A DNA stretch of 32,000 bases from Vibrio vulnificus CMCP6 (GCF_000039765.1 NC_004459.3:2571127-2603126), one strand, 5' to 3'; shown: positions 309 through 15,970, counted from the first letter of the stretch. A program made the numbers and translations. The notes: generated from the sequence alone by a model not told the origin.

Positions 309-656
309 GCTTAATCACGTAAAATCAGTGGTTTATGGTTTTCTTTGTTCCCTTAGCTTTTCAGTTTGGTGTATGTCGGTAAGTTGACTTCATTGGGCGC
401 TGTTTTTCGGACACTTATTCTTTGGCGCTGAAAATTCAGAGAGTTACCTCAATCAATTTTCAGGTAAGCGAGAGGTTAGGGTGGCTGGCTCAATCAGCAA
501 TTTGATCTTAGGTTTTTGAGTTTTAGCGGCCGAATTTCAAAGCCCAGATTTTCAAAACTATGAGTCATTTCGGTTTTCTACGTTTTGGCTTTTGTTTGTA
601 AATCACAGTCGAGTTAATCTTGTTTTCAGAAAAACGTAATCCATTGAAGCTTAAGC
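309..656 (+). other. Gene-less integron cassette, family member 1
   Basis: Bounded by attC 1 and attC 2 with no ORF of 60 aa or more. Clearly alignable to 8294-8646 and 14847-15193, with indels that are not multiples of 3. Confidence 0.8.
592..620 (+). promoter_or_regulatory. Candidate sigma70-like promoter in gene-less cassette (TTGTTT-17-TAATCT)
   Basis: Hexamers at 592-597 and 615-620 with a 17-nt spacer. The same arrangement recurs in members 3, 4 and 6 inside the conserved block GAGTTAATCTTGG. Confidence 0.3.
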
Positions 657-779
657 ATAACAAGGCGTTCAAGAGGGATTCATGCCGCGTGGCATTTTTG
701 GTATGCGGTGAGTTTTGGTGGTGAAAGTAGTGTGCGGAAAGTTGGTTTATGCGGCATTCACCTCTTAACGCGGCGTTAT
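657..779 (+). repeat. attC site 2
   Basis: ATAACAAGGCGTTCAAGAGGGATTCATGCCGCGTGGCA ... GCGGCATTCACCTCTTAACGCGGCGTTAT. Confidence 0.9.
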
Positions 780-807
780 ATTTTTAATCAATTTTCGAGT
801 CGAAATC

Positions 808-1272
808 ATGGATGAAAGAAGTAGAGTTTACCTGGAACAATATCTGAACTCTTTACCTGATGAGGTCGCTTCCAAATACACTTCGTTCAGCTCAGACTAT
901 TTCTGTGCAGATGAACACAATGCTAATCTCTGTGCCGAGTTAATCCTTCGTGGTGAAAAGCGTGCATCATGCAGCTTAGACTATTGGTACAGTGAAAAAG
1001 GCGAGCCAATGCCAGTTGTTGGACACCTTCAAGTCGTGACAAATTGGGATGGTATACCGATTTGTATTATAGAAATGACGTCTGTAACCAAGCAAAAATA
1101 CAGCGAAGTAACACCGGAGTTCGCGGCTTTAGAAGGTGAGGGTGACAAGACTTTAGCTTGGTGGCGGGAGGCGCATTGGAACTTCTTCTCAAAAGAGTGC
1201 GTAGAGTTAGAAATATCACCGTCGGAAGATATGTTGCTAGTACTAGAGCAGTTCAAAGTGGTGTACAAATAA
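808..1272 (+). CDS. ASCH domain protein (PUA-like fold, COG4405-like)
   Basis: 154 aa. The pattern YW...GEP.P.VG...V..DG.P.CIIE...V....F.EV..EFA..EGEGD..L..WR..HW.FF matches my memory of ASCH-family proteins. Confidence 0.7.
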   Translation: MDERSRVYLEQYLNSLPDEVASKYTSFSSDYFCADEHNANLCAELILRGEKRASCSLDYWYSEKGEPMPVVGHLQVVTNWDGIPICIIEMTSVTKQKYSEVTPEFAALEGEGDKTLAWWREAHWNFFSKECVELEISPSEDMLLVLEQFKVVYK

Positions 1273-1275
1273 AAA

Positions 1276-2366
1276 CTTAGTATCAAGTTTGAAGTGCGAC
1301 ACTTTTTACAGATGCGCATGAATATACTCCGTTGGTGTCCTATACCCAAGTCTTTTGCGTGGGCGCGTATTTAATTTGTGTGCAATTTCATTGCAGAGCT
1401 TCTGTGTTACGTGTGACATAGAAGTTCGTTTTGGTAAGTATTGTCGTATCAAACCATTGGTGTTTTCATTAGTCCCTCGCTCCCATGAATGGTATGGATT
1501 TGCAAAGTAAAACAGACAGTTATGATGTTTTTCCAGTTGTGCATAACCATGAAATTCAGTGCCGTTATCCGCAGTTATCGTCTTAAAAGGTAAGTCAGAG
1601 CGGGTCATGATTTTGCTCATTCTTACGTTGAGCGACTCGCTTGTTCTATCGTCCATTTGCCCTATAAAAGTGTAGCCAGTCATTCTGTCGACTAAAGTTA
1701 CGATACAGTGCTTGGTTCCGCGGCCAACGACGGTATCAATTTCCCAATGGCCAGGCTCATTTCGATGCTCAGCTTTTGCAGGTCTTTCGGTAATATGACG
1801 CTTTGCTGCCAGCCGACCTCGGCTGTCTTTTGAGTTATATCTTTTGCGCCTTTTCTTGGTCGATTGGCGTAGATGTTTCCATAGTGTTCCACCGAGAGTT
1901 TTGTCGTTCCAAATATGCTGATAAATGAGCTCGTGGCTCATTGTTGGATAGCCTCTTACCCTTAGGTATCCGACGATTTGGTCAGGGCTCCAATCCAGTC
2001 GTAGCAAGGCTTCAGGTAACCTGAAGTCGATTTCGCTATAGCGCTTGTTTCTGCGCGAGCGGCTTAGCCGGTTGCGAGCCATCTGTTGGGCTCTCCATGC
2101 TTGATAGGAGAACCTTCTAAAGTGTCTGTTGTATCGGGAATTACGTTCAATTTCTCGATAGATAGTAGCTTTGTGACGACCTAGTTGTTTAGCTATTTTA
2201 GCGGTACTAATTCCTTGCTTTCTGAGCGCAGAAATCATATACCTTTCGTTCTCAGTGAGGTGCGTGTATCTCATGTTTTTTACTTCTTGGCGGGAGCAAA
2301 CTTCATGATTATCGCATCTCACTGTTTTTATGTTCAGAGGTGTCGCACTTCGTACTTGAATCCAAG
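1276..2366 (-). mobile_element. IS30-family insertion sequence, copy 1 (1091 bp)
   Basis: 27-bp imperfect terminal IRs: CTTAGTATCAAGTTTGAAGTGCGACAC (1276-) and the reverse complement of GTGTCGCACTTCGTACTTGAATCCAAG (-2366). AAA flanks both ends, a possible 3-bp TSD. Single transposase ORF. Confidence 0.9.
1306..2274 (-). CDS. IS30-family DDE transposase
   Basis: N-terminal HTH (LTENERYMISALRKQGISTAKIAKQLGRHKATIYREIERN) and a C-terminal integrase-like DDE core (WEIDTV...ITADNGTEF...PYHSWERGTNENTNGL). The ORF track extends to a GTG at 2322; ATG 2274 (MRYTHL) is the more likely start. Confidence 0.9.
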   Translation of the reverse strand: MRYTHLTENERYMISALRKQGISTAKIAKQLGRHKATIYREIERNSRYNRHFRRFSYQAWRAQQMARNRLSRSRRNKRYSEIDFRLPEALLRLDWSPDQIVGYLRVRGYPTMSHELIYQHIWNDKTLGGTLWKHLRQSTKKRRKRYNSKDSRGRLAAKRHITERPAKAEHRNEPGHWEIDTVVGRGTKHCIVTLVDRMTGYTFIGQMDDRTSESLNVRMSKIMTRSDLPFKTITADNGTEFHGYAQLEKHHNCLFYFANPYHSWERGTNENTNGLIRQYLPKRTSMSHVTQKLCNEIAHKLNTRPRKRLGYRTPTEYIHAHL

Positions 2367-2370
2367 AAAT

Positions 2371-2492
2371 ATAACAAGGCGTTCAAGTGGGATTCATGCC
2401 GCGTGGCATTTTTAGTATGCGGTGTTTTTTGGTGGGTAAAGTGGTCTGCGGAAAGTTGTTTAGGCGGCATTCACCCCTTAACGCAGCGTTAG
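2371..2492 (+). repeat. attC site 3
   Basis: ATAACAAGGCGTTCAAGTGGGATTCATGCCGCGTGGCA ... GCGGCATTCACCCCTTAACGCAGCGTTAG. Begins 4 nt after the IS30 end. Confidence 0.9.
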
Positions 2493-2607
2493 AGCGCACC
2501 TACAATAATCACATTTTGTGACCGTGTTTAAAATGCCATACTGTTATTGTTTCATATTGTAATCAATCATTTATCATTGGGTTGAATTCATAATTGGAGA
2601 TTCTTAT

Positions 2608-3294
2608 ATGGCAAGATGTACTGCACCAGTAAATGGTCACCGTACAGCAAGTGCTAGAGCTAACTGTCCAGCATGCAGTAGCCGTGGTAGCTACAGTTCA
2701 TATTCATCATACCCTTCGTCCTCATATTCATCGTTTGGAGGAAGTGGTTACCGTTCAGGTGGTTCAAGCTCAAGTAGCCCAAGACCAAGTTGGTCAAGTC
2801 CAGGCTCTTCTGTAGTTTATACTCAAGCTGAAATTAGAACTCTTACTCCAGTCCGAAAAAATGTAGAGAGACGAGCTTCTAAACCTGATCTTCGCGATGT
2901 CTTCCTATGTCACGCTTGGGATGACCGTAAAGGAATCGCCAAGGAGTTACATGATTTACTCGAAGCTAAGGGTGTTTCAGTTTGGTTTAGTGAAAAAGAC
3001 GTTTTGCTCGGCTCAAACTTAATGCGTGAAATCGATAAGGGTTTAGCTAAATCAAGAATTGGAATTGTTATGGTAACGCCATCATTTTTGAAGCGCATAG
3101 CTGGCGAGGGGGTTGCTGACAAAGAGCTTTCGGCTTTACTCTCTACTGATTTGCTAGTACCAATTGTCCACGACACTACGTATGACGATCTTCGGGATGT
3201 AAGCCCGTTACTAGGTTCGCGAAGTGGCTTAGATACAGCAGAAGATCCATTAGATAATGTTGCTAGCAAACTTGCGGAGCTAGTGGCGCTCTAA
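2608..3294 (+). CDS. TIR-domain protein with Cys-motif and Ser/Tyr/Gly-rich low-complexity N-terminus
   Basis: 228 aa. The C-terminal half has TIR hallmarks: DVFLCHAWDD, KGIAKELHDLLEAKGVSVWFSEKDVLLGSNL, IDKGLAKSRIGIVMVTPSFLKR, ADKELSAL. The N-terminus has C4...C20PAC23 followed by SYSSYSSYPSSSYSSFGGSGYRSGGSSSSS. RBS GGAGA lies upstream of the ATG. Confidence 0.85.
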   Translation: MARCTAPVNGHRTASARANCPACSSRGSYSSYSSYPSSSYSSFGGSGYRSGGSSSSSPRPSWSSPGSSVVYTQAEIRTLTPVRKNVERRASKPDLRDVFLCHAWDDRKGIAKELHDLLEAKGVSVWFSEKDVLLGSNLMREIDKGLAKSRIGIVMVTPSFLKRIAGEGVADKELSALLSTDLLVPIVHDTTYDDLRDVSPLLGSRSGLDTAEDPLDNVASKLAELVAL

Positions 3295-3412
3295 CAATCT
3301 GTTTAAGAGTGATTCGCAACGCGTGGCATTTTTACTATGCGTTGCGTTTTGTGTTTAAGGTGGCATGCGGGAGCTTCGGTATTGCGTTGCTCACACCTTA
3401 ACAGGGCGTTAT
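3292..3412 (+). repeat. attC site 4
   Basis: TAACAATCTGTTTAAGAGTGATTCGCAACGCGTGGCA ... GCGTTGCTCACACCTTAACAGGGCGTTAT. The TIR stop codon lies inside R''. Confidence 0.85.
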
Positions 3413-3762
3413 GTTTAATCACGTAAAATCAGTTGGTTGCACTCTTTTTTGCTCACGCAGCTTTCAAGTTTTTCCCTTGTCGGCAAGTTAACATCGTTGA
3501 TCGCTGTTTTCTGGACTCCAATTCGTGGGCGCTAAAAATTCAGAGAGTTGCCTCATTGAAATGTAGTGTTTGGGTGAGGCGAGTGCAGCTTGCTCAGTTT
3601 TAAAGTTAGAGCCTCAGGTTTTCGTTTTCTAACATTGCAACTCAAAGTAAATCCAATTAATTTTATTAGTTAATTCAGTTTTTTAGGCTGTGGCTTTGGT
3701 GTGTAAAGGTAAGTCGAGTTAAGCTCTTGGTATCGTAAAACTTAACCCTTTGAGTCTTAAAC
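3413..3762 (+). other. Gene-less integron cassette, family member 2 (divergent 3' half)
   Basis: Shares the 5' TTAATCACGTAAAATCAG, GTCGGCAAGTT and CAGAGAGTTGCCTCA blocks with member 1 at the same offsets. No credible ORF. Confidence 0.7.
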
Positions 3763-3885
3763 ATAACAAGGCGTTCAAGTGGGATTCATGCCGCGTGGCA
3801 TTTTTGGTATGCGGTTGGTTTTTGTGGTGAAAGTGGTGTGCGGAAAGCTGGTTTAGGCGGCATTCACCCCTTAACGCAGCGTTAT
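3763..3885 (+). repeat. attC site 5
   Basis: ATAACAAGGCGTTCAAGTGGGATTCATGCCGCGTGGCA ... GGCGGCATTCACCCCTTAACGCAGCGTTAT. Confidence 0.9.
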
Positions 3886-3911
3886 GCCTTAACGTGAAAA
3901 CGGGAGAATAT

Positions 3912-4379
3912 ATGAAAGGGAAGATTCTTCGCTGGGTTGATGAACGTGGGTTTGGGTTCATTAAATCTGATGAGCTTGATGGCGACGTATTTGTTCATAT
4001 ATCCAAGTTTCCCCAAGGCTATCGTCGCCCACAAGTAGGTGATCATGTAGAGTTTCATCTGGCAAATAATCAGCCTAAATTAAGTGCAGCAAGTGCTCGT
4101 TTAATTGGCGTGGAACCTCAAAAAACAAACTCTCTTTCAGTTGTAATATCAGCAGCTGTCCTAGGTTTATTAGGTGCTGGATTATACGTGTTTCTTATCG
4201 AACCTAAACTGAACCCAGCGTATGAAAATATGGGTTTTAGTTGTGAAGGTAAAACGTACTGTAGCGAAATGGTGTCTTGTGACGAAGCTAAGTTTTATTT
4301 GTCAAACTGCCCGAACGTAAAAATAGACGGCGACCGTGATGGCATCCCTTGTGAGAGCCAGTTATGTGGCGGCTGGTAG
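3912..4379 (+). CDS. Membrane-anchored cold-shock-domain / Excalibur calcium-binding domain fusion protein
   Basis: CSD (GKILRWVDERGFGFIKSD...DVFVHIS), one TM segment (LSVVISAAVLGLLGAGLYVFLI), and an Excalibur motif (C..M.SCDEAKFYL.NCP.VKIDGDRDGIPCE). ATG 3912 has RBS GGGAGA; the ORF track starts at GTG 3894. Confidence 0.75.
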   Translation: MKGKILRWVDERGFGFIKSDELDGDVFVHISKFPQGYRRPQVGDHVEFHLANNQPKLSAASARLIGVEPQKTNSLSVVISAAVLGLLGAGLYVFLIEPKLNPAYENMGFSCEGKTYCSEMVSCDEAKFYLSNCPNVKIDGDRDGIPCESQLCGGW

Positions 4380-4386
4380 TATCGGC

Positions 4387-4508
4387 ATAACAAACAATTT
4401 AAGAGTGATTCGGCACGCGTGGCATTTTTGATATGCGTTGGTTTTAGTGGTTAAGGCGGTATGCGGCGGCATTGGTATTGCGTGCCTCACACCTTAATTG
4501 GGCGTTAT
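4387..4508 (+). repeat. attC site 6
   Basis: ATAACAAACAATTTAAGAGTGATTCGGCACGCGTGGCA ... GCGTGCCTCACACCTTAATTGGGCGTTAT. Confidence 0.85.
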
Positions 4509-4534
4509 ATTGTTTTTCAAGTTCAGGGATTAAA

Positions 4535-4834
4535 ATGAGTGAGTTATTTAACACTCTGATGGTTTGTGCGGTGTTGGTTTCATTGTTTCCGCTTATAAAA
4601 TCCAGCAAGAGTTTTTATGATGAATGGAGTGAAATGGAGAATGAGCATTGGCGTTCTAGAGGGGCCCCACCGTTCGCAGTGTTCCATTTTGGTATGTTCT
4701 TATTTGTTCCAATGCTTTTCGGCAAAGATCTGGAACAATTGAATAATAAGAGTTTGATAAAACGTAGGAATGATCTCAGGTACAGCTTTGCTATTTTTTC
4801 GCTACTGTTGCTCGCATCCCAGTTAAATCAATAA
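4535..4834 (+). CDS. Small membrane protein, unknown function
   Basis: 99 aa from ATG 4535 (MSELFNTLMVCAVLVSLFPL...) with about 3 hydrophobic segments. The track ORF start at 4472 lies inside attC 6 and is rejected. Confidence 0.55.
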   Translation: MSELFNTLMVCAVLVSLFPLIKSSKSFYDEWSEMENEHWRSRGAPPFAVFHFGMFLFVPMLFGKDLEQLNNKSLIKRRNDLRYSFAIFSLLLLASQLNQ

Positions 4835-4855
4835 ATTGGTTTTGGCAGCATCAAT

Positions 4856-4977
4856 ATAACAAGGCGTTTAAGAGGGATTCATGCCGCGTGGCATTTTTGG
4901 TATGCGGTTAGTTTTGGTGGTGAAGTGGTCTGCGGAAAGCTGGTTTAAGCGGCATTCACCCCTTAACGCAGCGTTAT
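4856..4977 (+). repeat. attC site 7
   Basis: ATAACAAGGCGTTTAAGAGGGATTCATGCCGCGTGGCA ... GCGGCATTCACCCCTTAACGCAGCGTTAT. Confidence 0.9.
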
Positions 4978-5448
4978 ATGCAATGGATTGGAATGTTTAT
5001 GAAAGGATTAAATGGCATCTTAAACGGTTTCACCTGGGGAATCGGTTTCTCAGTTGCAATCATTCTGAGTGGGTTGGTTTATACAAAGTTTGTTGAACCG
5101 TCGCTCGGAAATATTCTTGAAGACAAAGAAATCGATGACAAAGCAATTGAGTATTTAGCGGATTTCAAAACTGCCTATGGTTTAACATTGAAAAATGTCT
5201 TCAAAGATGGGGACGACGTGCGTTTAGCTGTCGTACAGGAAAACCTTACGGAAGACGCATTATATTCTCGTGAAGTTTTAGCATCTGCGTTTGATGTGAA
5301 TGGTAATTTTATTGGTAATTGTATCGGCGAAAATGAACTTTTCATTATGCAGCCAAAGGAAACCTCTTATCTTGAGATCAAATGTGCATTTGTACCATCG
5401 CAAGTCGAGCAAATCGATTCGTTTAAGTTAAGAATTAAGCCGATTTAG
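4978..5448 (+). CDS. N-terminally anchored protein, unknown function
   Basis: 156 aa with one TM segment (FTWGIGFSVAIILSGLVYTKF) followed by a soluble domain. The start is uncertain, with in-frame ATGs at 4978, 4993 and 4999. Confidence 0.55.
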   Translation: MQWIGMFMKGLNGILNGFTWGIGFSVAIILSGLVYTKFVEPSLGNILEDKEIDDKAIEYLADFKTAYGLTLKNVFKDGDDVRLAVVQENLTEDALYSREVLASAFDVNGNFIGNCIGENELFIMQPKETSYLEIKCAFVPSQVEQIDSFKLRIKPI

Positions 5449-5468
5449 CAAGCGCCAGAAAATTGCAT

Positions 5469-5591
5469 ATAACAAGGCGTTCAAGAGGGATTCATGCCGC
5501 GTGGCATTTTTGGCTTGCGGTGGTTTTTGGTGGTGAAAGTGGTATGCGGAAAGTTGGTTTAGGCGGCATTCACCCCTTAACGCAGCGTTAT
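5469..5591 (+). repeat. attC site 8
   Basis: ATAACAAGGCGTTCAAGAGGGATTCATGCCGCGTGGCA ... GGCGGCATTCACCCCTTAACGCAGCGTTAT. Confidence 0.9.
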
Positions 5592-5608
5592 ACGTTTAAG
5601 GAGAAATC

Positions 5609-5995
5609 GTGGTCGTCATATATGGAATAAAAGATCATTTGAATCCAATTAAAGCTGAGTTGTCCGATGTGATTCAGAACTCAATGACTCAAGCTCTAGG
5701 CTTGCCCGAGGATAAACGAGCTCACAGGTTTATTCCGCTTGATAAAAGTGATTTCTACTATCCTAGTGGTCGCACTGATGCCTACACGGTGATCGAAGTA
5801 AACATGATGGAAGGTCGCAAAGTAGAAACGAAAAAGGCATTGATCAAAGCGCTTTTTAGTAACATTGAATCTCGATTAGGCATTTCACCCGTTGATATTG
5901 AAATCACAATTAAAGAGCAGCCTTCCCATTGTTGGGGTTTCAGAGGCATTACAGGTGACGAAGTCGCCGACTTAACCTACAAAATCCACGTATAA
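5609..5995 (+). CDS. Tautomerase-family protein (Tautomerase_2-like)
   Basis: 128 aa with a GTG start 6 nt after a strong RBS (AAGGAG). The pattern IYG.K..L.P....LSD.I......AL..P..KR.HRF.PL...DF..P.GR.D.YT.IE....EGR..E.KK.LI..LF...E recalls this family. Confidence 0.6.
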   Translation: MVVIYGIKDHLNPIKAELSDVIQNSMTQALGLPEDKRAHRFIPLDKSDFYYPSGRTDAYTVIEVNMMEGRKVETKKALIKALFSNIESRLGISPVDIEITIKEQPSHCWGFRGITGDEVADLTYKIHV

Positions 5996-6114
5996 CAAGG
6001 CGTTAAAGTGGGATTCATGCCGCGTGGCATTTTTGGTATGCGGTGAGTATTGGCGGTGAAAGTGGTCTGCGGAAAGTTGGTTTAGGCGGCATTCACCCCT
6101 TAACGCAGCGTTAT
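5992..6114 (+). repeat. attC site 9
   Basis: ATAACAAGGCGTTAAAGTGGGATTCATGCCGCGTGGCA ... GGCGGCATTCACCCCTTAACGCAGCGTTAT. The upstream stop codon lies in R''. Confidence 0.9.
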
Positions 6115-6131
6115 GTTTCAATGGAGTTCTA

Positions 6132-6878
6132 GTGAAGTTAACAGAGTTTGAAAATAAAATAATAGAACTGGTTGGGTGTACTAAGGGTAACGCTGGCTTT
6201 GCAGCTAAATCTAGTATACGCCATATAGAGCGCTCGCTCGCTTTATCTGATTCTATGCCAGAAGTGTCCGCCTTTTTAGCAATAACTGCAGAAGAGGAAG
6301 CCGCGACAGCGCTGTTTCTAGCACTGAAGAATAAAAAATATAATCGTGCTAAAGAGCTGAATAAAAAGCGTCATCAACATAAGGGTGGTGTGTATCCATT
6401 CTTATCCTTACTTAAAGAGACAATTCTGGCTCTGAAAGAAGGGCCAACCTATGAGCTGATAATTGAAGAGGGCCCTAAAGCATCACTGCTTAAACTGCGA
6501 CATATCATTTTCATCGATGGTGAGTATAGATATTTTTATCCCGATCCCCCTCTGAATCTTTTTTCTTTAGATTCGATGGGGAAAGCTCAAGATTATTTTG
6601 AAGGTGTGAAATCAATAGCGGTAGAAAGAGGAATTTTATCAATTAGGGATCATATTGAGAAAGTTGCTAATATCCGCAATACGATACTTTATGCATCAGA
6701 TAGCTCTCTACCAAATGTCTCAAATGTTGAGGAAATGTTGAGCAGGCATATCGGAGCTGCATTGATTATTCAAATGATTTACCTACTAGTGGTTCAAAAT
6801 AAAAAACAGAACCTAGTTGAACAATGTCTTGATGTATTTTTAAGTGTTCAATGTGGATTTACGGCTAATGAAACATAA
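6132..6878 (+). CDS. Hypothetical 248-aa cytoplasmic protein (weak AbiV/HEPN-like N-terminal pattern)
   Basis: GTG start 5 nt after GGAG. No TM segment. The N-terminus (SSIRHIERSLAL...VSAFLAITAEEEAATALFLAL) recalls the helical A..LAI.A.EE..KA signature of AbiV-type proteins. This is a weak, by-eye similarity only. Confidence 0.6.
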   Translation: MKLTEFENKIIELVGCTKGNAGFAAKSSIRHIERSLALSDSMPEVSAFLAITAEEEAATALFLALKNKKYNRAKELNKKRHQHKGGVYPFLSLLKETILALKEGPTYELIIEEGPKASLLKLRHIIFIDGEYRYFYPDPPLNLFSLDSMGKAQDYFEGVKSIAVERGILSIRDHIEKVANIRNTILYASDSSLPNVSNVEEMLSRHIGAALIIQMIYLLVVQNKKQNLVEQCLDVFLSVQCGFTANET

Positions 6879-6999
6879 CAAGCAATTTAAGAGGGATTCA
6901 CAACGCTTGGCACTTTTGCTTCTACTTCAGTTTTAGTGTTTATGGCACAATGCTTTAGGTTTGGGTGGAGGCGTTGTTCACCCCTTAATTGGGCGTTAG
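6875..6999 (+). repeat. attC site 10
   Basis: ATAACAAGCAATTTAAGAGGGATTCACAACGCTTGGCA ... GGCGTTGTTCACCCCTTAATTGGGCGTTAG. Confidence 0.85.
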
Positions 7000-7346
7000 C
7001 TTAAAACATTGAAAATCAATTGTTTGTGGCTTTTTCTTTCTTCCATCGGCAATTAGCTCAGGTTTTTCGGCAAATCAGCATTGTTTGTCAATGCGAGTTT
7101 TGAGCAGTTGCCTCAATTGAGTTTTGGGATTGCGCGAGGTTCGCAAATTTGGCGCAAAGTCGCTTTGGCAGTTTTGCATTCTCTTTGAGTTTTCAGAAAG
7201 TGATTTATCAAAATTTTCGGGTTTTCAAATAGCATGAAAGGCCACAAAGTTTGAACCAATTCGGGTTTCAAAACTCAGGTGGTTTGTTGGTTTTCCAAAT
7301 CGGTTTAATCTCAGCTTTTGGCAAATCTAAGGTGCTGAAATTTAAG
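7000..7346 (+). other. Gene-less integron cassette, family member 3 (divergent)
   Basis: No credible ORF. Retains TCGGCAAATCAGCA, CAGTTGCCTCAATTG and GGTTTAATCT blocks. Confidence 0.65.
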
Positions 7347-7468
7347 CTAACAAACTGCTTAAGCGGGATTCGCAATGCGTGGCATTTTTAGCATGCGGTG
7401 AGTTTCGTGATTAAGTTTGTATGCGGTAGCTTTTGCAGTGCATTGCTCACCCCTTAGCAGGGCGTTAT
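7347..7468 (+). repeat. attC site 11
   Basis: CTAACAAACTGCTTAAGCGGGATTCGCAATGCGTGGCA ... GTGCATTGCTCACCCCTTAGCAGGGCGTTAT. Confidence 0.85.
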
Positions 7469-7602
7469 GCAATGCAAAAAGTCACATGCCTGGTTGACGT
7501 TTGTCGTTTCGATTAATTATCTTTGCTGAGACTCTTTGATTCAATTGTTACCATGTCGTCGTTTTTAGCGATAGAGCTTGTAATGAGCCGAAATGGTAAA
7601 GC

Positions 7603-8133: not shown

Positions 8134-8169
8134 AGTTCGATCAATATGTCAATTGAGTAACAGCATAGC

Positions 8170-8293
8170 ATAACAAAGCGTTTAAGACAGATTCCCAACG
8201 CATGGCATTTTTCATTCCATCGTTGGGTTTTGTGTTTAAGGTGGTATGGTTAAGTTTCGTGGTGGCGTTGCTCACTACTTAACGCGGCGTTAT
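8170..8293 (+). repeat. attC site 12
   Basis: ATAACAAAGCGTTTAAGACAGATTCCCAACGCATGGCA ... GGCGTTGCTCACTACTTAACGCGGCGTTAT. Confidence 0.85.
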
Positions 8294-8646
8294 GCTTAAT
8301 CAAATAAAATCAGTGGTTTATGGTTTTCTTTGTTCCCTCAGCTTTTCAGTTTTGTGTTTGTCGGCAAGTCGGCTTTTTTGAGCGCTTTTTTTCGGACTCT
8401 TATTCTTTGGCGCTAGAAATTCAGAGAATTGCCTCAATCAATTCTTGAGCAACTACGCGGTTAGGGCGGTTGGCTCAATCAGAAATCCATTTTTGGTTTT
8501 TAAACTCCAAGCCAGTTTTGCCAAAATCCGAAGTCTGATTATCAAAACTATGATTCATTTCGGCTTTCTAATCTTTGTCTTTTGTTTGCGAATCAAAGTC
8601 GAGTTAATCTTGGTCCTGGTCAAACGTAAGTCATTGAAGCTTAAGC
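8294..8646 (+). other. Gene-less integron cassette, family member 4
   Basis: Close paralogue of 309-656 and 14847-15193. The 89-aa track ORF (8445-8714) is not conserved in the paralogues and runs into the attC. Confidence 0.8.
8582..8610 (+). promoter_or_regulatory. Candidate promoter TTGTTT-17-TAATCT in gene-less cassette
   Basis: Same hexamers and spacing as at 592-620. Confidence 0.3.
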
Positions 8647-8769
8647 ATAACAAAGCGTTTAAGTGGGATTCATGCCGCGTGGCATTTTTGGTATGCAGTG
8701 AGTTTTGGTGGTGAAAGTGGTCTGCGGGAAGTTGGTTTATGCGGCATTCACCCCTTAACGCGGCGTTAG
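8647..8769 (+). repeat. attC site 13
   Basis: ATAACAAAGCGTTTAAGTGGGATTCATGCCGCGTGGCA ... GCGGCATTCACCCCTTAACGCGGCGTTAG. Confidence 0.9.
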
Positions 8770-8791
8770 TTTGCTAAAGGCTAGCGATTAA

Positions 8792-9289
8792 CTAGCCTAA
8801 GCTTGCTCTCACATCAGCAATGGTGATGAAGAGTTTATTTTCAGCGTCTTCAAATGCTTGAAAACCATAGCGTTCATAGAAGTGTTTCGCACCGTCTTTG
8901 GCATCAACGATGACAACTGGAAATGCAACGCTATCACTTGCAGCTAATAGCTTTCTGAGTGCGTCAATAAGCAGCCACTCACCAAAGCCTTTCCCTTTGT
9001 ATCGGTCATCGACAGCAAGGCGGGCAATCAGACCACCAGAGGTGGATGATTGGTGTTTTTTTTGTAACTTATCGGGCAATGCCTTTAAGTCAATTGGTGT
9101 CATTGTTAGCGTGTAAAAGCCGATGACATGTGAGTTGTCGTTATCATCTTCCAAAACAAACGTTCTGGTGTTGTCTTTTTTTGCTTGCTGACTCGCCATT
9201 ACTTTTAAGTAATTATTGAGAGCTTCGATACCACAGTTGAATCGGTTTCTATCGTGTTTAGCTTTATCTAGAAGTACCGTATTCATCAT
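8792..9289 (-). CDS. GNAT-family acetyltransferase toxin (TacT/KacT-like) of a type II TA pair
   Basis: 165 aa with a GNAT core (RLAVDDRYKGKGFGEWLLIDAL...FYERYGF). It overlaps the upstream DUF1778-type antitoxin gene by 4 nt. Orientation is reversed relative to the array. Confidence 0.8.
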   Translation of the reverse strand: MMNTVLLDKAKHDRNRFNCGIEALNNYLKVMASQQAKKDNTRTFVLEDDNDNSHVIGFYTLTMTPIDLKALPDKLQKKHQSSTSGGLIARLAVDDRYKGKGFGEWLLIDALRKLLAASDSVAFPVVIVDAKDGAKHFYERYGFQAFEDAENKLFITIADVRASLG

Positions 9290-9558
9290 TGAATTTTGCT
9301 CTCGTATCGATCAGCAGCAGCTTTTAGTTTTGAGCTCTGTGTTGCAGGGCGGTCTAAAGCTTCCATGAGCAACATCGCATCTGCTTGGCTCAGTTTTAAA
9401 GCCTGTTCACGTTCGATGACTTGTTTAGCTTTTTCGATTGCAGCGCTTAGAACAAACGAGTTGATGCTAGACATGCCGGCGATCGCGGCAGCCTTAGTAA
9501 GTAAGTCTTGTGTATCGACATCAACTCTAGCGGTGATGCGAGGCAAAGTAGTAGCCAT
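9286..9558 (-). CDS. RHH / DUF1778-type antitoxin (TacA/KacA-like)
   Basis: 90 aa. The sequence RITARVDVDTQDLLTKAAAIAGMSSINSFVLSAAIEKAKQVIE is typical of the DUF1778 ribbon-helix-helix family. Confidence 0.8.
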   Translation of the reverse strand: MATTLPRITARVDVDTQDLLTKAAAIAGMSSINSFVLSAAIEKAKQVIEREQALKLSQADAMLLMEALDRPATQSSKLKAAADRYESKIQ

Positions 9559-9595
9559 AATGTTATCTCCTGTTGTGTCAAAATGTCACACATGT

Positions 9596-9624
9596 ATTAT
9601 GGTCTTAAAGTGTGCAATAAGCAA
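9596..9624 (-). promoter_or_regulatory. Candidate TA-operon promoter (TTGCTT-17-CATAAT on minus strand)
   Basis: -35 at 9624-9619 and -10 at 9601-9596, about 38 nt upstream of the antitoxin ATG. Hexamer match only. Confidence 0.4.
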
Positions 9625-9649
9625 TCTCTGTGTCACTTTGGCACGCAAA

Positions 9650-9773
9650 CTAACAAAGCGTTCAAGACGGATTCCCAACGCTTGGCATTTTTGGTTTGCT
9701 TCAGTTTTAGTGTTTACGGCACAATACTTTAGGTACAGTGGTCTGCGTTGCTCACCACTTAACGCGGCGTTAT
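9650..9773 (+). repeat. attC site 14
   Basis: CTAACAAAGCGTTCAAGACGGATTCCCAACGCTTGGCA ... GCGTTGCTCACCACTTAACGCGGCGTTAT. Confidence 0.85.
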
Positions 9774-10193
9774 GCGACAGGGAAAAGTTTTTAGGTTTCT
9801 TCACTTTCGTTGTCTCTGGCTATTCGTTTTTCGCTCTCGGCAAATCAGCATCGTCGGCTCAAATTCTTGAATCACTGAAACCGTAAAGCATGCCAAAATT
9901 CGGGAAGTTGCCTCATTAAAAATCGCATTTGGCTGTGGAAAACTATCAGGCGCAAAGTGTGGAAAGGGCAAGTTTATGGAAAGTCGGTATTCGCTGAAAT
10001 TTCGGCTCGTTGAATTTCTCATGAGTAAAAGCCACACCTTCGCTTTAAGGTCGCGTTCCGTGCTTGTGGCGGCCTTTTTAGAAAATGTTGAGTCCCTTGG
10101 TTCTTGAATCACAAAAAGTTATCTGCGCGTTTGTAGTTTTTCGTGTTTAAGGTAATGTTTTCGTCGGCCAATTTGGCGTTTGCGTACAAATCG
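9774..10193 (+). other. Gene-less integron cassette, family member 5 (divergent, IS30 inserted at its 3' end)
   Basis: Retains CTCGGCAAATCAGCATCG and GGGAAGTTGCCTCATT at the family offset. The only ORF is a minus-strand 103-aa ORF that is not conserved in the other members. Confidence 0.55.
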
Positions 10194-11285
10194 CTTAGTA
10201 TCAAGTTTGAAGTGCGACACTTTTTACAGATGCGCATGAATATACTCCGTTGGTGTCCTATACCCAAGTCTTTTGCGTGGGCGCGTATTTAATTTGTGTG
10301 CAATTTCATTGCAGAGCTTCTGTGTTACGTGTGACATAGAAGTTCGTTTTGGTAAGTATTGTCGTATCAAACCATTGGTGTTTTCATTAGTCCCTCGCTC
10401 CCATGAATGGTATGGATTTGCAAAGTAAAACAGACAGTTATGATGTTTTTCCAGTTGTGCATAACCATGAAATTCAGTGCCGTTATCCGCAGTTATCGTC
10501 TTAAAAGGTAAGTCAGAGCGGGTCATGATTTTGCTCATTCTTACGTTGAGCGACTCGCTTGTTCTATCGTCCATTTGCCCTATAAAAGTGTAGCCAGTCA
10601 TTCTGTCGACTAAAGTTACGATACAGTGCTTTGGTCCGCGGGCCAACGACGGTATCAATTTCCCAATGGCCAGGCTCATTTCGATGCTCAGCTTTTGCAG
10701 GTCTTTCGGTAATATGACGCTTTGCTGCCAGCCGACCTCGGCTGTCTTTTGAGTTATATCTTTTGCGCCTTTTCTTGGTCGATTGGCGTAGATGTTTCCA
10801 TAGTGTTCCACCGAGAGTTTTGTCGTTCCAAATATGCTGATAAATGAGCTCGTGGCTCATTGTTGGATAGCCTCTTACCCTTAGGTATCCGACGATTTGG
10901 TCAGGGCTCCAATCCAGTCGTAGCAAGGCTTCAGGTAACCTGAAGTCGATTTCGCTATAGCGCTTGTTTCTGCGCGAGCGGCTTAGCCGGTTGCGAGCCA
11001 TCTGTTGGGCTCTCCATGCTTGATAGGAGAACCTTCTAAAGTGTCTGTTGTATCGGGAATTACGTTCAATTTCTCGATAGATAGTAGCTTTGTGACGACC
11101 TAGTTGTTTAGCTATTTTAGCGGTACTAATTCCTTGCTTTCTGAGCGCAGAAATCATATACCTTTCGTTCTCAGTGAGGTGCGTGTATCTCATGTTTTTT
11201 ACTTCTTGGCGGGAGCAAACTTCATGATTATCGCATCTCACTGTTTTTATGTTCAGAGGTGTCGCACTTCGTACTTGAATCCAAG
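10194..11285 (-). mobile_element. IS30-family insertion sequence, copy 2 (1092 bp, transposase frameshifted)
   Basis: Same IRs as copy 1 and 1 nt longer. The flanks (TCG / TAA) show no direct repeat. Confidence 0.9.
10224..11193 (-). pseudogene. IS30-family transposase, frameshifted
   Basis: Copy 1 reads CTTGGTTCCGCGGCCAAC where copy 2 reads CTTTGGTCCGCGGGCCAAC (~10628-10646). This +1 nt change splits the gene into track ORFs 10224-10811 and 10564-11241. Confidence 0.85.
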
Positions 11286-11289
11286 TAAG

Positions 11290-11411
11290 CTAACAAAGCG
11301 TTTAAGAGGGATTCATGCCGCGTGGCATTTTTGGTATGCGGTTGGTTTTGGTGGTGAAAGTGGTCTGCGGAAGCTTGGTTTATGCGGCATTCACCCTTAA
11401 CGCGGCGTTAT
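11290..11411 (+). repeat. attC site 15
   Basis: CTAACAAAGCGTTTAAGAGGGATTCATGCCGCGTGGCA ... GCGGCATTCACCCTTAACGCGGCGTTAT. Begins 4 nt after the IS30 end. Confidence 0.9.
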
Positions 11412-11865
11412 GAGGCATATGGATATTCAACTAATACAAGTAGAAAGTGATGAGTTCGAAAGTCTGTTTACTGTTGTTAAACAAGGACTTTATTCGCATG
11501 TTGATGCCGTCTTTGGGTGGTGTGATGAGTTTCAGGTCAATCGTTTAAAAAATGATTATGAGCCGCTTTGGTTTCACTGGGTTTACCTCAATAACACGCA
11601 AGTTGGCATGCTATGCTTCAAGCCTTACGACAATGCACTTCATGTACATTTACTCATTGTGTTTCCTGAATTTCAAAATCAGAAACTGGGTGAAAGGGTC
11701 ATGAACATGATTCACGAAATGGCGCGTGAGCAAGGGCGTAGTTACGTAACCTTATCAAGTTTTACTAGAAACGAGCCTGCGGTAAGGTTTTACAAATCCC
11801 TTGGCTATCAGGTGACTGAAAGCGATGAAAACTTCCTTTCTTTGTCGCTTCAAGTTGCCTCATAA
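11410..11865 (+). CDS. GNAT-family N-acetyltransferase
   Basis: 151 aa. Acetyl-CoA-binding-type region VFPEFQNQKLGERVMNMIHEMAREQG...VRFYKSLGYQV. The start is ATG 11410 or ATG 11419. Confidence 0.8.
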   Translation: MRHMDIQLIQVESDEFESLFTVVKQGLYSHVDAVFGWCDEFQVNRLKNDYEPLWFHWVYLNNTQVGMLCFKPYDNALHVHLLIVFPEFQNQKLGERVMNMIHEMAREQGRSYVTLSSFTRNEPAVRFYKSLGYQVTESDENFLSLSLQVAS

Positions 11866-11984
11866 CAAACAATTCAAGAGCGATTCGCAACGCATGGCAT
11901 TTTTAGTTCAAATCAACTTTAGTGTTTACGGTGCAATCGGTTAAGTTAAGTGGTGGCGTTGCTCACGCCTTAATTGGGCGTTAG
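11862..11984 (+). repeat. attC site 16
   Basis: ATAACAAACAATTCAAGAGCGATTCGCAACGCATGGCA ... GGCGTTGCTCACGCCTTAATTGGGCGTTAG. Confidence 0.85.
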
Positions 11985-12010
11985 GTTTCAGAGTTTATCG
12001 AGAGCAAAGT

Positions 12011-12508
12011 ATGGAAATAGTCTTTGTTTATAGAACATATTCAATATTTGGCGGCAACGCCACTTTAGATGTCGCAGGAAAGTGGCTGAGCAAACAGTTG
12101 AAAGAAAATTATGGTGGAAACATCACCTCAATTATCTTTGAATTTTGCGCCAAGAATGTATCTCCTCCTAGAAAAACACTAGAGAATAATAATGTTAAGT
12201 TTGAAGAGTTTCTCCTTCAGCTCCCTATTGCTGAAGTTCAGAAAAAAGGAACAGAGCTTCGAATTTGCTCAAGGTTAGTTAAACATTATCACGATGATAT
12301 TGAACGTGATTCTCAGGTGTTATCGCTAAAGGTATTTCAAACAACGCTGAGTAAGAGCGCCACTTTAATAGAGTCATTAGAGGCGCTGAACAACAACCTG
12401 AAAGCGTTAGATACAAAAGCTTTATCTAGGGATATACGAAACGCAATAGAAAACGCGCCTCAGACGCTACGTGAGTTGGCAATGTTATACCTTGAACAAC
12501 AAACCTAA
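12011..12508 (+). CDS. Hypothetical 165-aa cytoplasmic protein
   Basis: Clean ORF filling the cassette, with its stop codon in attC R''. No motif recognised. Confidence 0.6.
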   Translation: MEIVFVYRTYSIFGGNATLDVAGKWLSKQLKENYGGNITSIIFEFCAKNVSPPRKTLENNNVKFEEFLLQLPIAEVQKKGTELRICSRLVKHYHDDIERDSQVLSLKVFQTTLSKSATLIESLEALNNNLKALDTKALSRDIRNAIENAPQTLRELAMLYLEQQT

Positions 12509-12627
12509 CAAAGCGTTTAAGTGGGATTTGGCACGCGTGGCATTTTGAGGTTGCGTTGGGTTCAGTGATTACGGCGCTATGCGGTAGCTTTTGTATTGCG
12601 TGCCTGCACCCCTTAACGCGGCGTTAG
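12505..12627 (+). repeat. attC site 17
   Basis: CTAACAAAGCGTTTAAGTGGGATTTGGCACGCGTGGCA ... GCGTGCCTGCACCCCTTAACGCGGCGTTAG. Confidence 0.85.
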
Positions 12628-12662
12628 CAGTCAACATCAATTACAGTGAATAACGAAAAAGT

Positions 12663-13451
12663 ATGACAAGTTTTAAAATTGAGAGGCCAGACTTCCCTTT
12701 GTGGGCTCCTAAATCTGTTATCGCTGAATGGGAAGAGCAAGCGGAAGAGGTCGCGTATTGGCAAAGAAAGTTTCCAACTTTAGAGCCTGATACTGATGAA
12801 GCCGATATGTTGGCGCGATTATTAACCTATGAAGACATGAAGTCGGTTTGGGAACGACTACCAAAATATAAAATTAAGCCGACTCTCTTTGTCTCCATGG
12901 TTCAGTGTTCTCAGTCTTTTATCGGTATTAAGCCTTACAATCTAACTCCCAAAGAGCATGCAATATGGCTTCAAGATGTAAAAGACACAGCTCTGAAATT
13001 GAAGTCTTTAATTCAATTTAGTCCCTACGACCGAATCCTAGAAGAAAAGTACCTCAAGAAACGACAAAAATATGTAATGGCAAATATAGTTGAGCACTCT
13101 CTACAAATACTCAAACCTGAGGTCAATGTTGAAGAGCACGAAAAAACAAGACCAGCTTATGAATCCTGGCCTGACTTTTTGCCACAGCCTTTAAGCGAAG
13201 TGCTGTCTGAGCTAGCGTCATTGGAGTCTGAGGATGAAATTAATGTTGTTGGTTCAAAGCGTAGGAAATCTGTCAGATTAGATAAGCCGAGTCATCCTAA
13301 TGCCAAACGTAGTTATTTCATTAGAAATTTAACTCAAGAGCTACGAGATTTTACAGGGCAACCTTTGCGTGACATTGTGACAGTCACTACGGCCACAGTA
13401 TTTGATACGCCATCTTTGACAGAAAGGCAGATCATTCGTATTGCCCCCTGA
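12663..13451 (+). CDS. Hypothetical 262-aa protein, acidic, no TM
   Basis: Largest orphan ORF in the array. No motif recognised. Confidence 0.65.
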   Translation: MTSFKIERPDFPLWAPKSVIAEWEEQAEEVAYWQRKFPTLEPDTDEADMLARLLTYEDMKSVWERLPKYKIKPTLFVSMVQCSQSFIGIKPYNLTPKEHAIWLQDVKDTALKLKSLIQFSPYDRILEEKYLKKRQKYVMANIVEHSLQILKPEVNVEEHEKTRPAYESWPDFLPQPLSEVLSELASLESEDEINVVGSKRRKSVRLDKPSHPNAKRSYFIRNLTQELRDFTGQPLRDIVTVTTATVFDTPSLTERQIIRIAP

Positions 13452-13542
13452 CACAATATCGCCAAAATCTGGATTTAGTGTCATGTCAGGTTGGATAAGC
13501 AATTAAGTATCTTAGCAATGTAACCAGTGTTAGGAGAAAAAT

Positions 13543-13644
13543 ATGCGTTTTGAAGTTAAAGTTAGTCTTTGTATAAGCCCACAGTTTCTATCTAGCTTAG
13601 TTCAAGCTATAAAAATGTTGGCTATTGTCGGGTGCTTGATTTAA
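13543..13644 (+). CDS. Candidate 33-aa small hydrophobic peptide
   Basis: ATG preceded by a strong RBS (TAGGAGAAAAAT). Sequence MRFEVKVSLCISPQFLSSLVQAIKMLAIVGCLI. It lies in the otherwise unexplained 214-nt gap between the 262-aa ORF and the attC. Confidence 0.3.
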   Translation: MRFEVKVSLCISPQFLSSLVQAIKMLAIVGCLI

Positions 13645-13665
13645 TAAAGTCGTGTAAGTTGAATG

Positions 13666-13758
13666 CTAACAAAGCATTTAAGAGTGATTCGCAACGCTTG
13701 GCAGTTTCGCTTCGCTCAAGTATAGCCAAGCGCCGCTCACACCTTAATGCGGCGTTAT
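13666..13758 (+). repeat. attC site 18 (short 93-bp variant)
   Basis: CTAACAAAGCATTTAAGAGTGATTCGCAACGCTTGGCAGTTTCGCTTCGCTCAAGTATAGCCAAGCGCCGCTCACACCTTAATGCGGCGTTAT. The central variable region is about 30 nt shorter than in the others. Confidence 0.8.
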
Positions 13759-13775
13759 AAAACAAGAGGGCAAAC

Positions 13776-14105
13776 ATGGAAAAATCTGAATATGGTAAGT
13801 GGATTCATACTGCTTTTACTGGCGCAAGTTTTGCCTACTTTCTAGCAGTCATTGATAAGGTTGACCTGATTGTTTCAAGCTACTCGTTAGCCTTTTCTAC
13901 GTTGTCATTTGCCTTAGCATTAGCTTTAAACGCTATTTTTGCAATGGTTTACTATGGTTTCGACGGAGAACTAGATGTTACTGAAAAACTCTCTAAATAT
14001 TGGTTGCTACGACGTTTCAACAGTTTGTCCCAGTGGTCGTTTATCTTTGCTGTGATTGGGTTGGTATATTTTGTCATTGAGCCAGTGGTGAGAATTGTTT
14101 TATAA
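13776..14105 (+). CDS. Small membrane protein (3-4 TM), unknown function
   Basis: 109 aa with hydrophobic helices throughout. The stop codon lies in attC R''. Confidence 0.6.
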   Translation: MEKSEYGKWIHTAFTGASFAYFLAVIDKVDLIVSSYSLAFSTLSFALALALNAIFAMVYYGFDGELDVTEKLSKYWLLRRFNSLSQWSFIFAVIGLVYFVIEPVVRIVL

Positions 14106-14223
14106 CAAACTGTTTAAGAGTGATTCGCAACGCGTGGCATTTTTACTATGCGTTGGTTTTAGTGTTTAAGGTGGTATGCGGCGGCTTCGGTATTGCGTTG
14201 CTCACACCTTAACAGGGCGTTAG
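14102..14223 (+). repeat. attC site 19
   Basis: ATAACAAACTGTTTAAGAGTGATTCGCAACGCGTGGCA ... GCGTTGCTCACACCTTAACAGGGCGTTAG. Confidence 0.85.
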
Positions 14224-14247
14224 GCGCTATTCACTTTAGGATTAGGG

Positions 14248-14727
14248 ATGAACGTAGAATTTAAAGTGATCAATTTGGCGCAAGATTATGATTTTTGCGT
14301 AGCTGCTCGAAAGGATGCTTACTATTGCAGTTTCGAGACCTTTTCGGGTTTTGATGATTTCATAGCAGGTTATCGAGAACGAATCCAAGAAAGGCAATCT
14401 GAAGCAGGTTGGTTTTACATCCATATCTGGTTGGATGGAATATTGGTAGGGCAGTTAGAGTTTCGTTCTTTTTCACCCGAGCCAGAGACCGGTTATGTTC
14501 ATTTGGTTTACTTGTTGCCTGAAGTTCGCGGTTCTGGTTTGAGCCAGCAAGTTCAGGCCTACATCGAAACAGAATTAGCACGAGCTGGTTGTGAGCGTGC
14601 TGTGCTTTCCGTGAGTAGAACGAACGCAAGGGCGTTAAGGTTCTATAAGCGTAATGGTTGGGTATATTGTTGCGCTAATCCGAAGCACGATGATACCGAT
14701 TTTTACCAATTACAGCTGCGCGCCTAA
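14248..14727 (+). CDS. GNAT-family N-acetyltransferase
   Basis: 159 aa. Contains YLLPEVRGSGLSQQVQAYIETELARAGCERAVLSVSRTNARALRFYKRNGW. Confidence 0.8.
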   Translation: MNVEFKVINLAQDYDFCVAARKDAYYCSFETFSGFDDFIAGYRERIQERQSEAGWFYIHIWLDGILVGQLEFRSFSPEPETGYVHLVYLLPEVRGSGLSQQVQAYIETELARAGCERAVLSVSRTNARALRFYKRNGWVYCCANPKHDDTDFYQLQLRA

Positions 14728-14846
14728 CAAGGCGTTCAAGAGGGATTCATGCCGCGTGGCATTTTTGGTATGCGGTGAGTTTTGGTGGTGAAAGTGGTCT
14801 GCGGAAAGTTGGTTTAGGCGGCATTCACCCCTTAACGCAGCGTTAT
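14724..14846 (+). repeat. attC site 20
   Basis: CTAACAAGGCGTTCAAGAGGGATTCATGCCGCGTGGCA ... GGCGGCATTCACCCCTTAACGCAGCGTTAT. Confidence 0.9.
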
Positions 14847-15193
14847 GCTTAATCACTTAAAATCAGTGGTTTATGTTTTTCTTTGTTCCCTTAGCTGATT
14901 TGTTTTGTGCTTGTCGGCAAGTTGACTTCATTGGGCGCTGCTTTTCGGACACTTATTCTTTGGCGCTGAAAATGCAGAGAATTGCCTCAATCAGTTTTCA
15001 AGCAAGCGCGAGGTTAGGGTGGCTGGCTCAATCAGCAATTTGATCTTAGCTTTTTGAGTTTTAGCGGCCAAATTTCAAAGTCAGATTTTCAAAAATCATG
15101 AGTCATTTCAGTTTTTAGGTTTTGCCTTTTGTTAACTAATCCTAGCCGAGTTAATCTTGGTTTTGGTAAAAATGTGGGCGTTGAAGCTTAAGC
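14847..15193 (+). other. Gene-less integron cassette, family member 6
   Basis: Near-colinear paralogue of 309-656. No ORF of 60 aa or more. Confidence 0.8.
15129..15157 (+). promoter_or_regulatory. Candidate promoter TTGTTA-17-TAATCT in gene-less cassette
   Basis: Same position and spacing as in members 1 and 4. Confidence 0.3.
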
Positions 15194-15316: not shown

Positions 15317-15360
15317 AACACAAAATCAGGCTATTGCTCAAAAAGGCTATTTGAACTATT

Positions 15361-15961: not shown

Positions 15962-15970
15962 CAATTGTGT

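Follow-up and report, generated by a model that had tools for sequence, protein, structure and literature searches.

The DNA analyzed here is a 32,000-nucleotide (nt) stretch of Vibrio vulnificus CMCP6 (GCF_000039765.1 NC_004459.3:2571127-2603126), which we refer to as the window. Its first 20.3 kb are a cassette array of a sedentary chromosomal integron, the V. vulnificus superintegron, with the plus strand as the sense orientation. Positions 1-20300 contain about 23 attC sites, which start with ATAACAA or CTAACAA (R'' box) and end with GCG/TTAT (R' box; the slash marks the crossover point). Six of the about 23 cassettes, roughly one in four as originally predicted, contain no gene and resemble each other (m1 to m6, Table 1). 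These six cassettes are members of a known, abundant, and Vibrio-wide non-coding family, now termed "promoter cassettes", and their best-supported function, which we regard as moderately probable, is that of an internal sense promoter that feeds the downstream cassettes.

A MAFFT alignment of the six stretches confirmed that all of them belong to one family of discrete cassettes, as had been proposed. Common to all six are a box A (TCGGYAART) and a box B (RTTRCCTCAWT), which are 31-61 nt apart, and the combined pattern of both boxes had no match in 100 shuffles of the window. Counted from the G/TT crossover, the members start 4 nt before the positions first assigned to them, and they end at the R'' box. 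The closest pairs are m1/m6 (87% identity), m1/m4 (80%), and m4/m6 (78%), whereas m2 shares 65-69% with these three, and m3 and m5 range at 53-59%. Unlike in the original prediction, m2 does not belong to the members that keep only blocks, as it aligns along its whole length. The claim that each cassette is flanked by attC sites applies to all members except for the right side of m5. There, the middle one of three IS30-family elements (Table 1), which does not belong to the cassette family, parts the m5 body from the attC at 11290 and thereby explains the odd right flank. The m5 body itself is complete, as its 424 nt are in line with relatives of about 425-430 nt.

Table 1. Positions of the six family members and of other features in the window (plus strand = sense; box and promoter positions refer to the whole stretch; lengths of types are approximate).
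Feature	Type	Position	Strand	Boxes	Candidate -35	Candidate -10	attC or remark
m1	350-nt type	305-656	+	A 376-384 (TCGGTAAGT); B 443-453 (GTTACCTCAAT); C about 481-494	TTGTTT 592-597	TAATCT 615-620	own attC 657-781
m2	350-nt type, second subfamily	3409-3762	+	A 3480-3488; B 3547-3557	TTGGTG 3696-3701	TAAGCT 3720-3725	own attC 3763-3887
m3	divergent 350-nt type, short module	6996-7346	+	two A-like 7046-7054 and 7067-7075; B 7107-7117	TTGTTG 7284-7289	TAATCT 7306-7311	own attC 7347-7470
m4	350-nt type	8290-8646	+	A 8361-8369; B 8428-8438; B-like box C (GTTGGCTCAAT) 8469-8479	TTGTTT 8582-8587	TAATCT 8605-8610	own attC 8647-8771
m5	430-nt type	9770-10193	+	A 9837-9845; B 9907-9917	TTGTAG 10131-10136	TAATGT 10153-10158	body complete; attC at 11290 beyond an insertion sequence
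m6	350-nt type	14843-15193	+	A 14914-14922; B 14981-14991	TTGTTA 15129-15134	TAATCT 15152-15157	own attC 15194-15318
10-nt end pairing		305-314 with 647-656; 3409-3418 with 3753-3762					
IS30-family copies	HTH_38 + rve transposase	1273-2366; 10194-11285; 15956-17060	-				
Hairpin + T-run in attC		682-705; 2396-2419; 3788-3811; 4881-4904; 8672-8695; other attC sites	sense				

The extent of the family was determined by scanning a genome collection with the two-box pattern, which gave at least 120 loci, about 25 of them from Vibrionaceae and the rest chance matches that were used as controls, and by profile searches (nhmmer) that were extended with loci fetched through cassette proteins. At least 123 nhmmer matches and at least 91 unique complete cassettes were obtained, all bounded by attC R'/R'' and located in Vibrio or Aliivibrio loci, and none of the matches listed came from the about 95 non-Vibrionaceae control loci. 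A metagenome scan with a box-free pattern returned 27 loci, all of which were chance matches, and no family member. The hosts comprise at least about 20 species of Vibrio and Aliivibrio, including V. vulnificus, V. floridensis, V. proteolyticus, and V. mimicus (the latter three with full-length nhmmer matches), V. cholerae, V. parahaemolyticus, V. navarrensis, V. hepatarius, V. aquaticus, V. sinaloensis, V. aestuarianus, V. atypicus, V. anguillarum, V. pacinii, V. fluminensis, V. furnissii, V. ouci, and V. genomosp. F10. The six members and 107 complete copies from elsewhere all start directly after GCG/TTA and end at an [ACT]TAACAA R'' box. The first 10 nt of the family cassettes (TTATGCTTAA) are the reverse complement of the last 10 nt (TTAAGCATAA), which carries the attC R'/R'' pairing well past the 7-nt core. 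A compensatory pair, TTATGTTTAA/TTAAACATAA, occurs in the m2 subfamily (31 C:G, 15 T:A, and 2 T:G in 48 copies).

For a sampling that was blind to the family, we used ten 20-kb V. vulnificus loci that had been picked via an unrelated 154-residue ASCH-domain protein, which is encoded at 808-1272 of the window and has identical counterparts in several V. vulnificus chromosomes, such as CP002469 and CP014049. In these loci, 56 of 286 cassettes (20%) belonged to the family, and in a V. navarrensis contig (L166), the family even accounted for 8 of 15 cassettes. Near-identical copies are common to many Vibrio species, and copies with 84-90% identity occur on plasmids of V. alginolyticus, V. parahaemolyticus, and V. 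navarrensis. The records labelled as Vibrio plasmids that carry family copies are NZ_CP016323.1, NZ_CP065219.1, NZ_CP010886.1, and NZ_CP135970.1. The first of these, a 40.8-kb record from V. vulnificus, has 19 matching places and may therefore be part of the superintegron and not a true plasmid; on a 130-kb plasmid, a short cassette run contains the V. alginolyticus copy.

By length, the cassettes form three classes: one of about 350 nt with two subfamilies and an m3-like type, an m5-like one of about 430 nt, and one of about 460 nt that has two tandem modules. They have in common a 5' module of about 200 nt, whereas the 3' halves vary by type. The module consists, in this order, of TTCTTTG, box A0 (TTGGCAATTCG; also written TTGGCAAT), box A (TCGGCAA), AAATTC, box B (GTTGCCTCAWT), and box C (GGCTCAA). 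In about 20 species, boxes A and B show little or no variation, across types with identities down to 53-59% elsewhere. It is this module that defines the family; it is not coding, has no stable RNA fold, and does not represent a canonical promoter. No similarity or complementarity to the intIA/attIA region was found.

Of the cassettes in Vibrio arrays, 6-49% are non-coding; these are paralogous and apparently under purifying selection, and they have homologues of more than 80% identity only in other vibrios (Boucher et al., 2006, BMC Evol Biol 6:3, PMC1382264). One highly paralogous family in that study comprised 45 of 219 cassettes in V. vulnificus CMCP6 and 34 of 187 in YJ016, and selfish elements, promoters, and regulatory RNAs were proposed as roles. 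These fractions of 20.5% and 18% match the 20% that we found, and the family analyzed here is therefore very probably the same, as judged by species, copy number, and properties; the paper gives no sequence or motif. Both are bounded by attC, have no open reading frame (ORF) and no codon-like substitution pattern, occur with many paralogs per array, and have homologues of more than 80% identity in other vibrios. In contrast to that description, the family is split here into three length types that share a 5' module, and one copy was found outside Vibrio, on a Pseudomonas plasmid.

Support for the promoter function comes from published work on homologues with 81-89% identity. Blanco et al. (2024, NAR 52:2961, PMC11014356) cloned 30 gene-less cassettes between divergent reporters, and 17 of these (V1-V13, which are all of the V. 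vulnificus cassettes in the set, C2, C7, P1, and P4; Supplementary Table S1) carry the family module, with nhmmer E-values of, for example, 4.5e-32 for P4 and 1.7e-22 for C2. Distant members are F3 (5.6e-07) and F2 (0.0037). The core profile had no nhmmer match in C1, C3, C8, P2, and F1, which thus do not belong to the family, and C4-C6, C9, C10, and P3 were judged to be non-members from their sequences. By eye, C3-C6 and C8-C10 from V. cholerae and C1, P2, and P3 form two further homologous groups, one of which shares the palindrome CTGAAAATTCAG with the family. The sense reporter, GFP, was increased 5-20-fold by 11 of the 13 V cassettes, V7 and V12 being without activity; P1 and P4 lay within a range of 8-28-fold, and C2 was active, with native RNA-seq showing a transcript rise within the cassette (Blanco et al., 2024, PMC11014356). 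For C2, the supplements of Krin 2018 contain no data on transcription start sites. In total, 14 of the 17 clear family members thus had sense-strand promoter activity in that study. Its text does not discuss families, paralogs, or homology among the cassettes and leans toward spurious initiation in AT-rich DNA or decayed genes as an explanation.

Among the members in the window, m1 is 82-86% identical to V1, V4, V7, V8, and V12, m4 is 87-89% identical to V1 and V4, m6 is 82-84% identical to V7, V8, and V12, and m2 is 81% identical to V2. From homologues with 81-89% identity, we infer that the six window copies are likely active as well; in the copies themselves, a weak sigma-70-like match at a conserved position is visible. 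The relation of m5 to P1 is more distant (65%), and m3 differs from the tested cassettes in that it has no close relative among them (57-59%); its homologues are found in V. vulnificus (L124) and in the V. navarrensis contig L166. The original prediction had left the function open among promoter, small RNA (sRNA), and protein-binding platform. With the published activity of homologues and the family report from 2006, the question is less open than had been assumed.

Each member is a normal mobile cassette with its own attC and without a gene, and it would function in cis: a weak sense-strand promoter would restart transcription inside the long array and thereby permit the expression of downstream cassettes that are far from the Pc promoter of the integron. 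A candidate sigma-70-like pair near the 3' end consists of a -35 box TTGTTT, TTGTTA, or TTGGTT, a spacer of 16-17 nt, and a -10 box TAATCT, TAAGCT, or TAATGT, as in TTGTTT-17-TAATCT. A match of at least 6 bits with the -10 box ending exactly 36 nt before R'' is present in 40 of 62 cassettes of the 350-nt type, and the same match is found 35-38 nt before R'' in 6 of 13 of the 430-nt type, with intervening sequences that are not conserved between types. BPROM, as used by Blanco et al. (Table S4, PMC11014356), chose the same boxes, namely AGTTAATCT with TTGTTT, and GGGTAATCT. With a candidate -10 box that ends about 36 nt before R'', transcription would continue across the attC and enter the next cassette, and the 5' module could tune the output as a cis-regulatory part, acting either as a platform for factor binding or as a short RNA leader signal. 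By description, a comparable case are the ORF-less cassettes of Treponema integrons (Tansirichaiya et al., 2019, PMC6557892), which also are gene-less and have measured promoter activity. They come from other organisms and an atypical integron layout, and their promoters, which were similar to the sigma-70 consensus, had been observed for the most part on the antisense strand.

Several aspects weigh against such a promoter function. The candidate promoter is weak, as it scores about 7 bits and agrees with the consensus at 6 of 12 positions, and was absent from a simple consensus scan; the density of promoter-like matches over whole cassettes equals that of shuffled sequence; and the 460-nt type as well as some subtypes of the 430-nt type have no candidate box. 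According to the supplement text, the active V4 and the inactive V12 have the same -35/-10 region, which means that something else must set the activity, and C7, a member with tandem modules, was also inactive (Blanco et al., 2024, PMC11014356). In the same study, 5' RACE gave scattered ends at 12-261 for V7 and 106-244 for V11, none of them coinciding with the predicted start. As the annealing site of the nested primer gsp4_R covers the TAATCT box, however, a start at this position could not have been detected. Family cassettes can follow each other in tandem, as in L092 and L166, and a promoter requires about 50 bp, which leaves the conserved 5' module of about 200 nt unexplained. A conserved sigma-70 match was not found in this module, as at most 16-23% of the sequences had one at any aligned position.

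Some of these points would be expected if the cassettes were selfish passengers of the integron that spread by efficient excision and re-insertion or are homogenized by gene conversion, with a promoter activity that is incidental to T/A-rich sequence. We consider this rather unlikely. Such an explanation, which Boucher et al. (2006) had listed as an option, would account for the very high copy number in V. vulnificus and V. navarrensis, for tandem copies and duplicated internal modules, for near-identical copies in many Vibrio species, for the copies on plasmids and in one class 1 integron (see below), and for a promoter-like density that is no higher than in shuffled sequence. However, the conservation is patchy, with boxes A and B kept nearly unchanged in cassettes of otherwise 53-59% identity, which points to selection on specific sites. 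In addition, no reporter signal was obtained with lacZ fragments of equal size that served as controls (Blanco et al., 2024), and the attC sites of the members are of several ordinary types that are also found on coding cassettes.

As to the function of the 5' module within a promoter cassette, a factor-binding platform, a short RNA signal based on boxes A and B, and a feature that promotes spreading are candidates. By eye, none of the motifs for sigma-54, sigma-28, sigma-E, sigma-32, CRP, IHF, ArcA, ops, or boxA fitted. An antitermination element was considered and set aside, as the controls of Blanco et al. show no termination at attC sites and a low read-through of the empty vector. The inactive cassettes V7 and V12 are the only V cassettes in which the CTCAWT of box B is changed (CCTAAAT in V7 and CCTCAGT in V12, as read from machine-converted supplement text), and V12 additionally has TAGG instead of GAGG further downstream, so that the changes of both hit the same predicted C:G pair. 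This observation is post hoc and concerns two cassettes. The variants are also present in other strains. The observation fits the idea that the 5' module is a switch that gates the restart of transcription along the array, be it as an RNA leader in which box B alternates between box A and GAGG, or as a four-box DNA platform (A0, A, B, and C) for an unknown Vibrio factor, but it does not prove it, and we regard such a switch as unlikely on present evidence. If it existed, a fifth of all cassettes would represent a distributed, condition-dependent control layer of the superintegron.

The 12-mer TTCTTGAATCAC occurs twice in the 430-nt type, in m5 at 9864-9875 within the 5' module and at 10101-10112, about 40 nt upstream of the candidate -10 box. 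In the relatives P1 and L068, the second copy is embedded in a 22-bp near-palindrome (TTTGTGGTTCTTGAATCACAAA), and by its sequence the repeat looks like a putative protein-binding site.

The original prediction had also named an RNA function. In this case, the transcribed 5' module would be an sRNA or a cis-acting RNA switch with a box B (UUGCCUC) that pairs with box A (GGCAA) upstream or with GAGGU downstream. An argument for this is the complementarity of GGCAA in box A to TTGCC in box B, which pairs in 99.5% of the cells in 43 non-redundant modules. Two pairs of this A:B helix are changed on both sides, the covariation score was reached in none of 500 shuffles, and slid controls showed no such signal. 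In all 12 tandem cassettes of the 460-nt type, the pairing is module-specific, with AGCAA/TTGCT in module 1 and GGCAA/TTGCC in module 2, and m1 has the pair GGTAA/TTACC. A U-rich sense strand in 91 of 91 copies, the predicted C:G pair that is altered in V7 and V12 and links box B to GAGG, and the fact that such a role was left open by both Boucher et al. (2006) and Blanco et al. (2024) also favor an RNA. From the sequences, the A:B pairing is suggestive rather than established. The helix has only 5 bp and cannot be extended, and of about 9 independent changes, 5-6 are uncompensated singletons, compared to two compensated events. The B:GAGGU helix is conserved without real covariation and has single mismatches in 13 of 62 copies.

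A stably folded RNA is poorly supported, since we found neither several covarying helices nor an extra folding stability. The 32-kb window had no Rfam match at gathering scores, and the only match at E ≤ 1 was a chance match inside an attC. Minimum free energy z-scores of nt 41-215 against dinucleotide shuffles (41 sequences) averaged -0.05 for the plus and -0.16 for the minus strand, with 2% below -2. Apart from the A:B helix and the attC R'/R'' stem, RNAalifold runs on 4, 24, 40, and 48 sequences and on both strands agreed on no fold; the other helices were 60-90% paired with many uncompensated mismatches. In mutual information analyses, type differences and gaps dominated the signal, and the effective number of sequences was about 20. 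Inner hairpins with CGGCC/GGCCG and GCAU/AUGC, noted by eye, were discarded as too inconsistent; m3 has an inner hairpin GCATTG/CAATGC, also seen by eye. No conserved promoter was found upstream of the module, and no conserved terminator. The integron-encoded trans-acting sRNA-Xcc1 of Xanthomonas campestris (Chen et al., 2011, cited in PMC8876359) is, as far as the citing account describes it, a similar case of a non-coding cassette with a regulatory product, but it differs in that no Rfam match exists in the window and that no discrete transcript, promoter, or terminator is evident for the family. Taken together, an RNA function of the transcribed module appears doubtful.

The family is non-coding. 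In the two subfamilies of the 350-nt type, 21 of 22 and 9 of 9 gap runs are not multiples of three, and no 3-nt periodicity is seen in the column variability, whose observed value was reached by 179 and 80 of 200 shuffles. Single-T indels move close relatives between reading frames. The claim that every short ORF is broken was only partly right, since 19 of 32 close relatives retain an intact 13-codon ORF (MSHFGFLRFGFCL), and 24 of 32 have the same stop. This ORF nevertheless lacks a coding signature: its changes are distributed over the codon positions as 30/39/24, a Shine-Dalgarno sequence is missing, and in the sister subfamily, the sequence is ATG AGT TAA. The longest frame (103 residues) matched 417 clusters of 60-159 residues in a set of 5.8 billion proteins, and the named ones among these were all "hypothetical protein" and all from Vibrio; no Pfam domain was found in the called cassette proteins. 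At least 35 stop-free sense codons span one alignment column in 49 of 49 copies of the 350-nt type, and these long open frames exist because A is scarce on the sense strand, which has 37% T and 23% A and a T>A skew of +0.235 in 91 of 91 copies. That the cassettes encode a small protein, either the 13-residue peptide or a frame of 50-100 codons, or are remnants of decayed protein genes, is therefore very improbable, in spite of the conserved start and stop, the long stop-free stretch, and the many annotated proteins. What holds is the original view that the cassettes are conserved without coding potential and are not junk, as the indel pattern, the missing codon periodicity, the absence of a protein family, and the boxes that are invariant across about 20 species all agree with it.

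One member lies outside the vibrios. On the Pseudomonas mendocina plasmid NZ_CP115818.1, a member of the 430-nt type with 82% identity to m5 occupies the first cassette position of a class 1 integron (L158 5992-6543, record positions 28423-28974) and has its own Vibrio-type attC. The gene order is intI1, attI1, family cassette, qnrVC1, a small cassette with the annotation VF530 family protein, and aac(6')-IIa, and at the junction of attI1 and cassette, AAAACAAAG is joined to TTATGCGAC. Among the 72,556 plasmids of PLSDB, this is the sole class 1 integron record with a member, and 5,426 E. coli genomes contained no copy of the integron-borne cassette. The capture of promoter cassettes by mobile integrons was raised merely as a possibility by Blanco et al. 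(2024, PMC11014356), and a family member in first position beside qnrVC1 on a Pseudomonas plasmid is the scenario that these authors had only speculated on.

Further observations concern the array. Many attC sites contain a small GC hairpin that is followed by a T-run on the sense strand (ATGCCGCGTGGCAT TTTTGG; Table 1) and has a terminator-like look; according to Blanco et al. (2024, PMC11014356), transcription is not terminated by attC sites. The three IS30-family copies each lie directly 5' of an attC R'' box, which suggests the junction of cassette body and attC as their insertion target. In the middle copy, the transposase frame is split into two ORFs, and in another V. vulnificus strain (L126, about 6335-7303), a different family cassette is interrupted by a similar IS30-type element.

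Most of the finding is known, as the family was very probably noted in 2006 and the promoter activity of close relatives was shown in 2024, and it does not represent a new kind of element. Newly linked are three aspects: of the 30 promoter cassettes tested in 2024, at least 17 are members of a single conserved family, which is very probably the paralogous family of 2006; the conserved core of this family is not a recognizable promoter; and one member already occupies the first position of a class 1 integron, beside qnrVC1, on a Pseudomonas plasmid. Superintegrons contain hundreds of mostly promoterless genes, whose expression is an active question, and boxes A and B, the -10 box, and the V7 and V12 variants supply testable targets.

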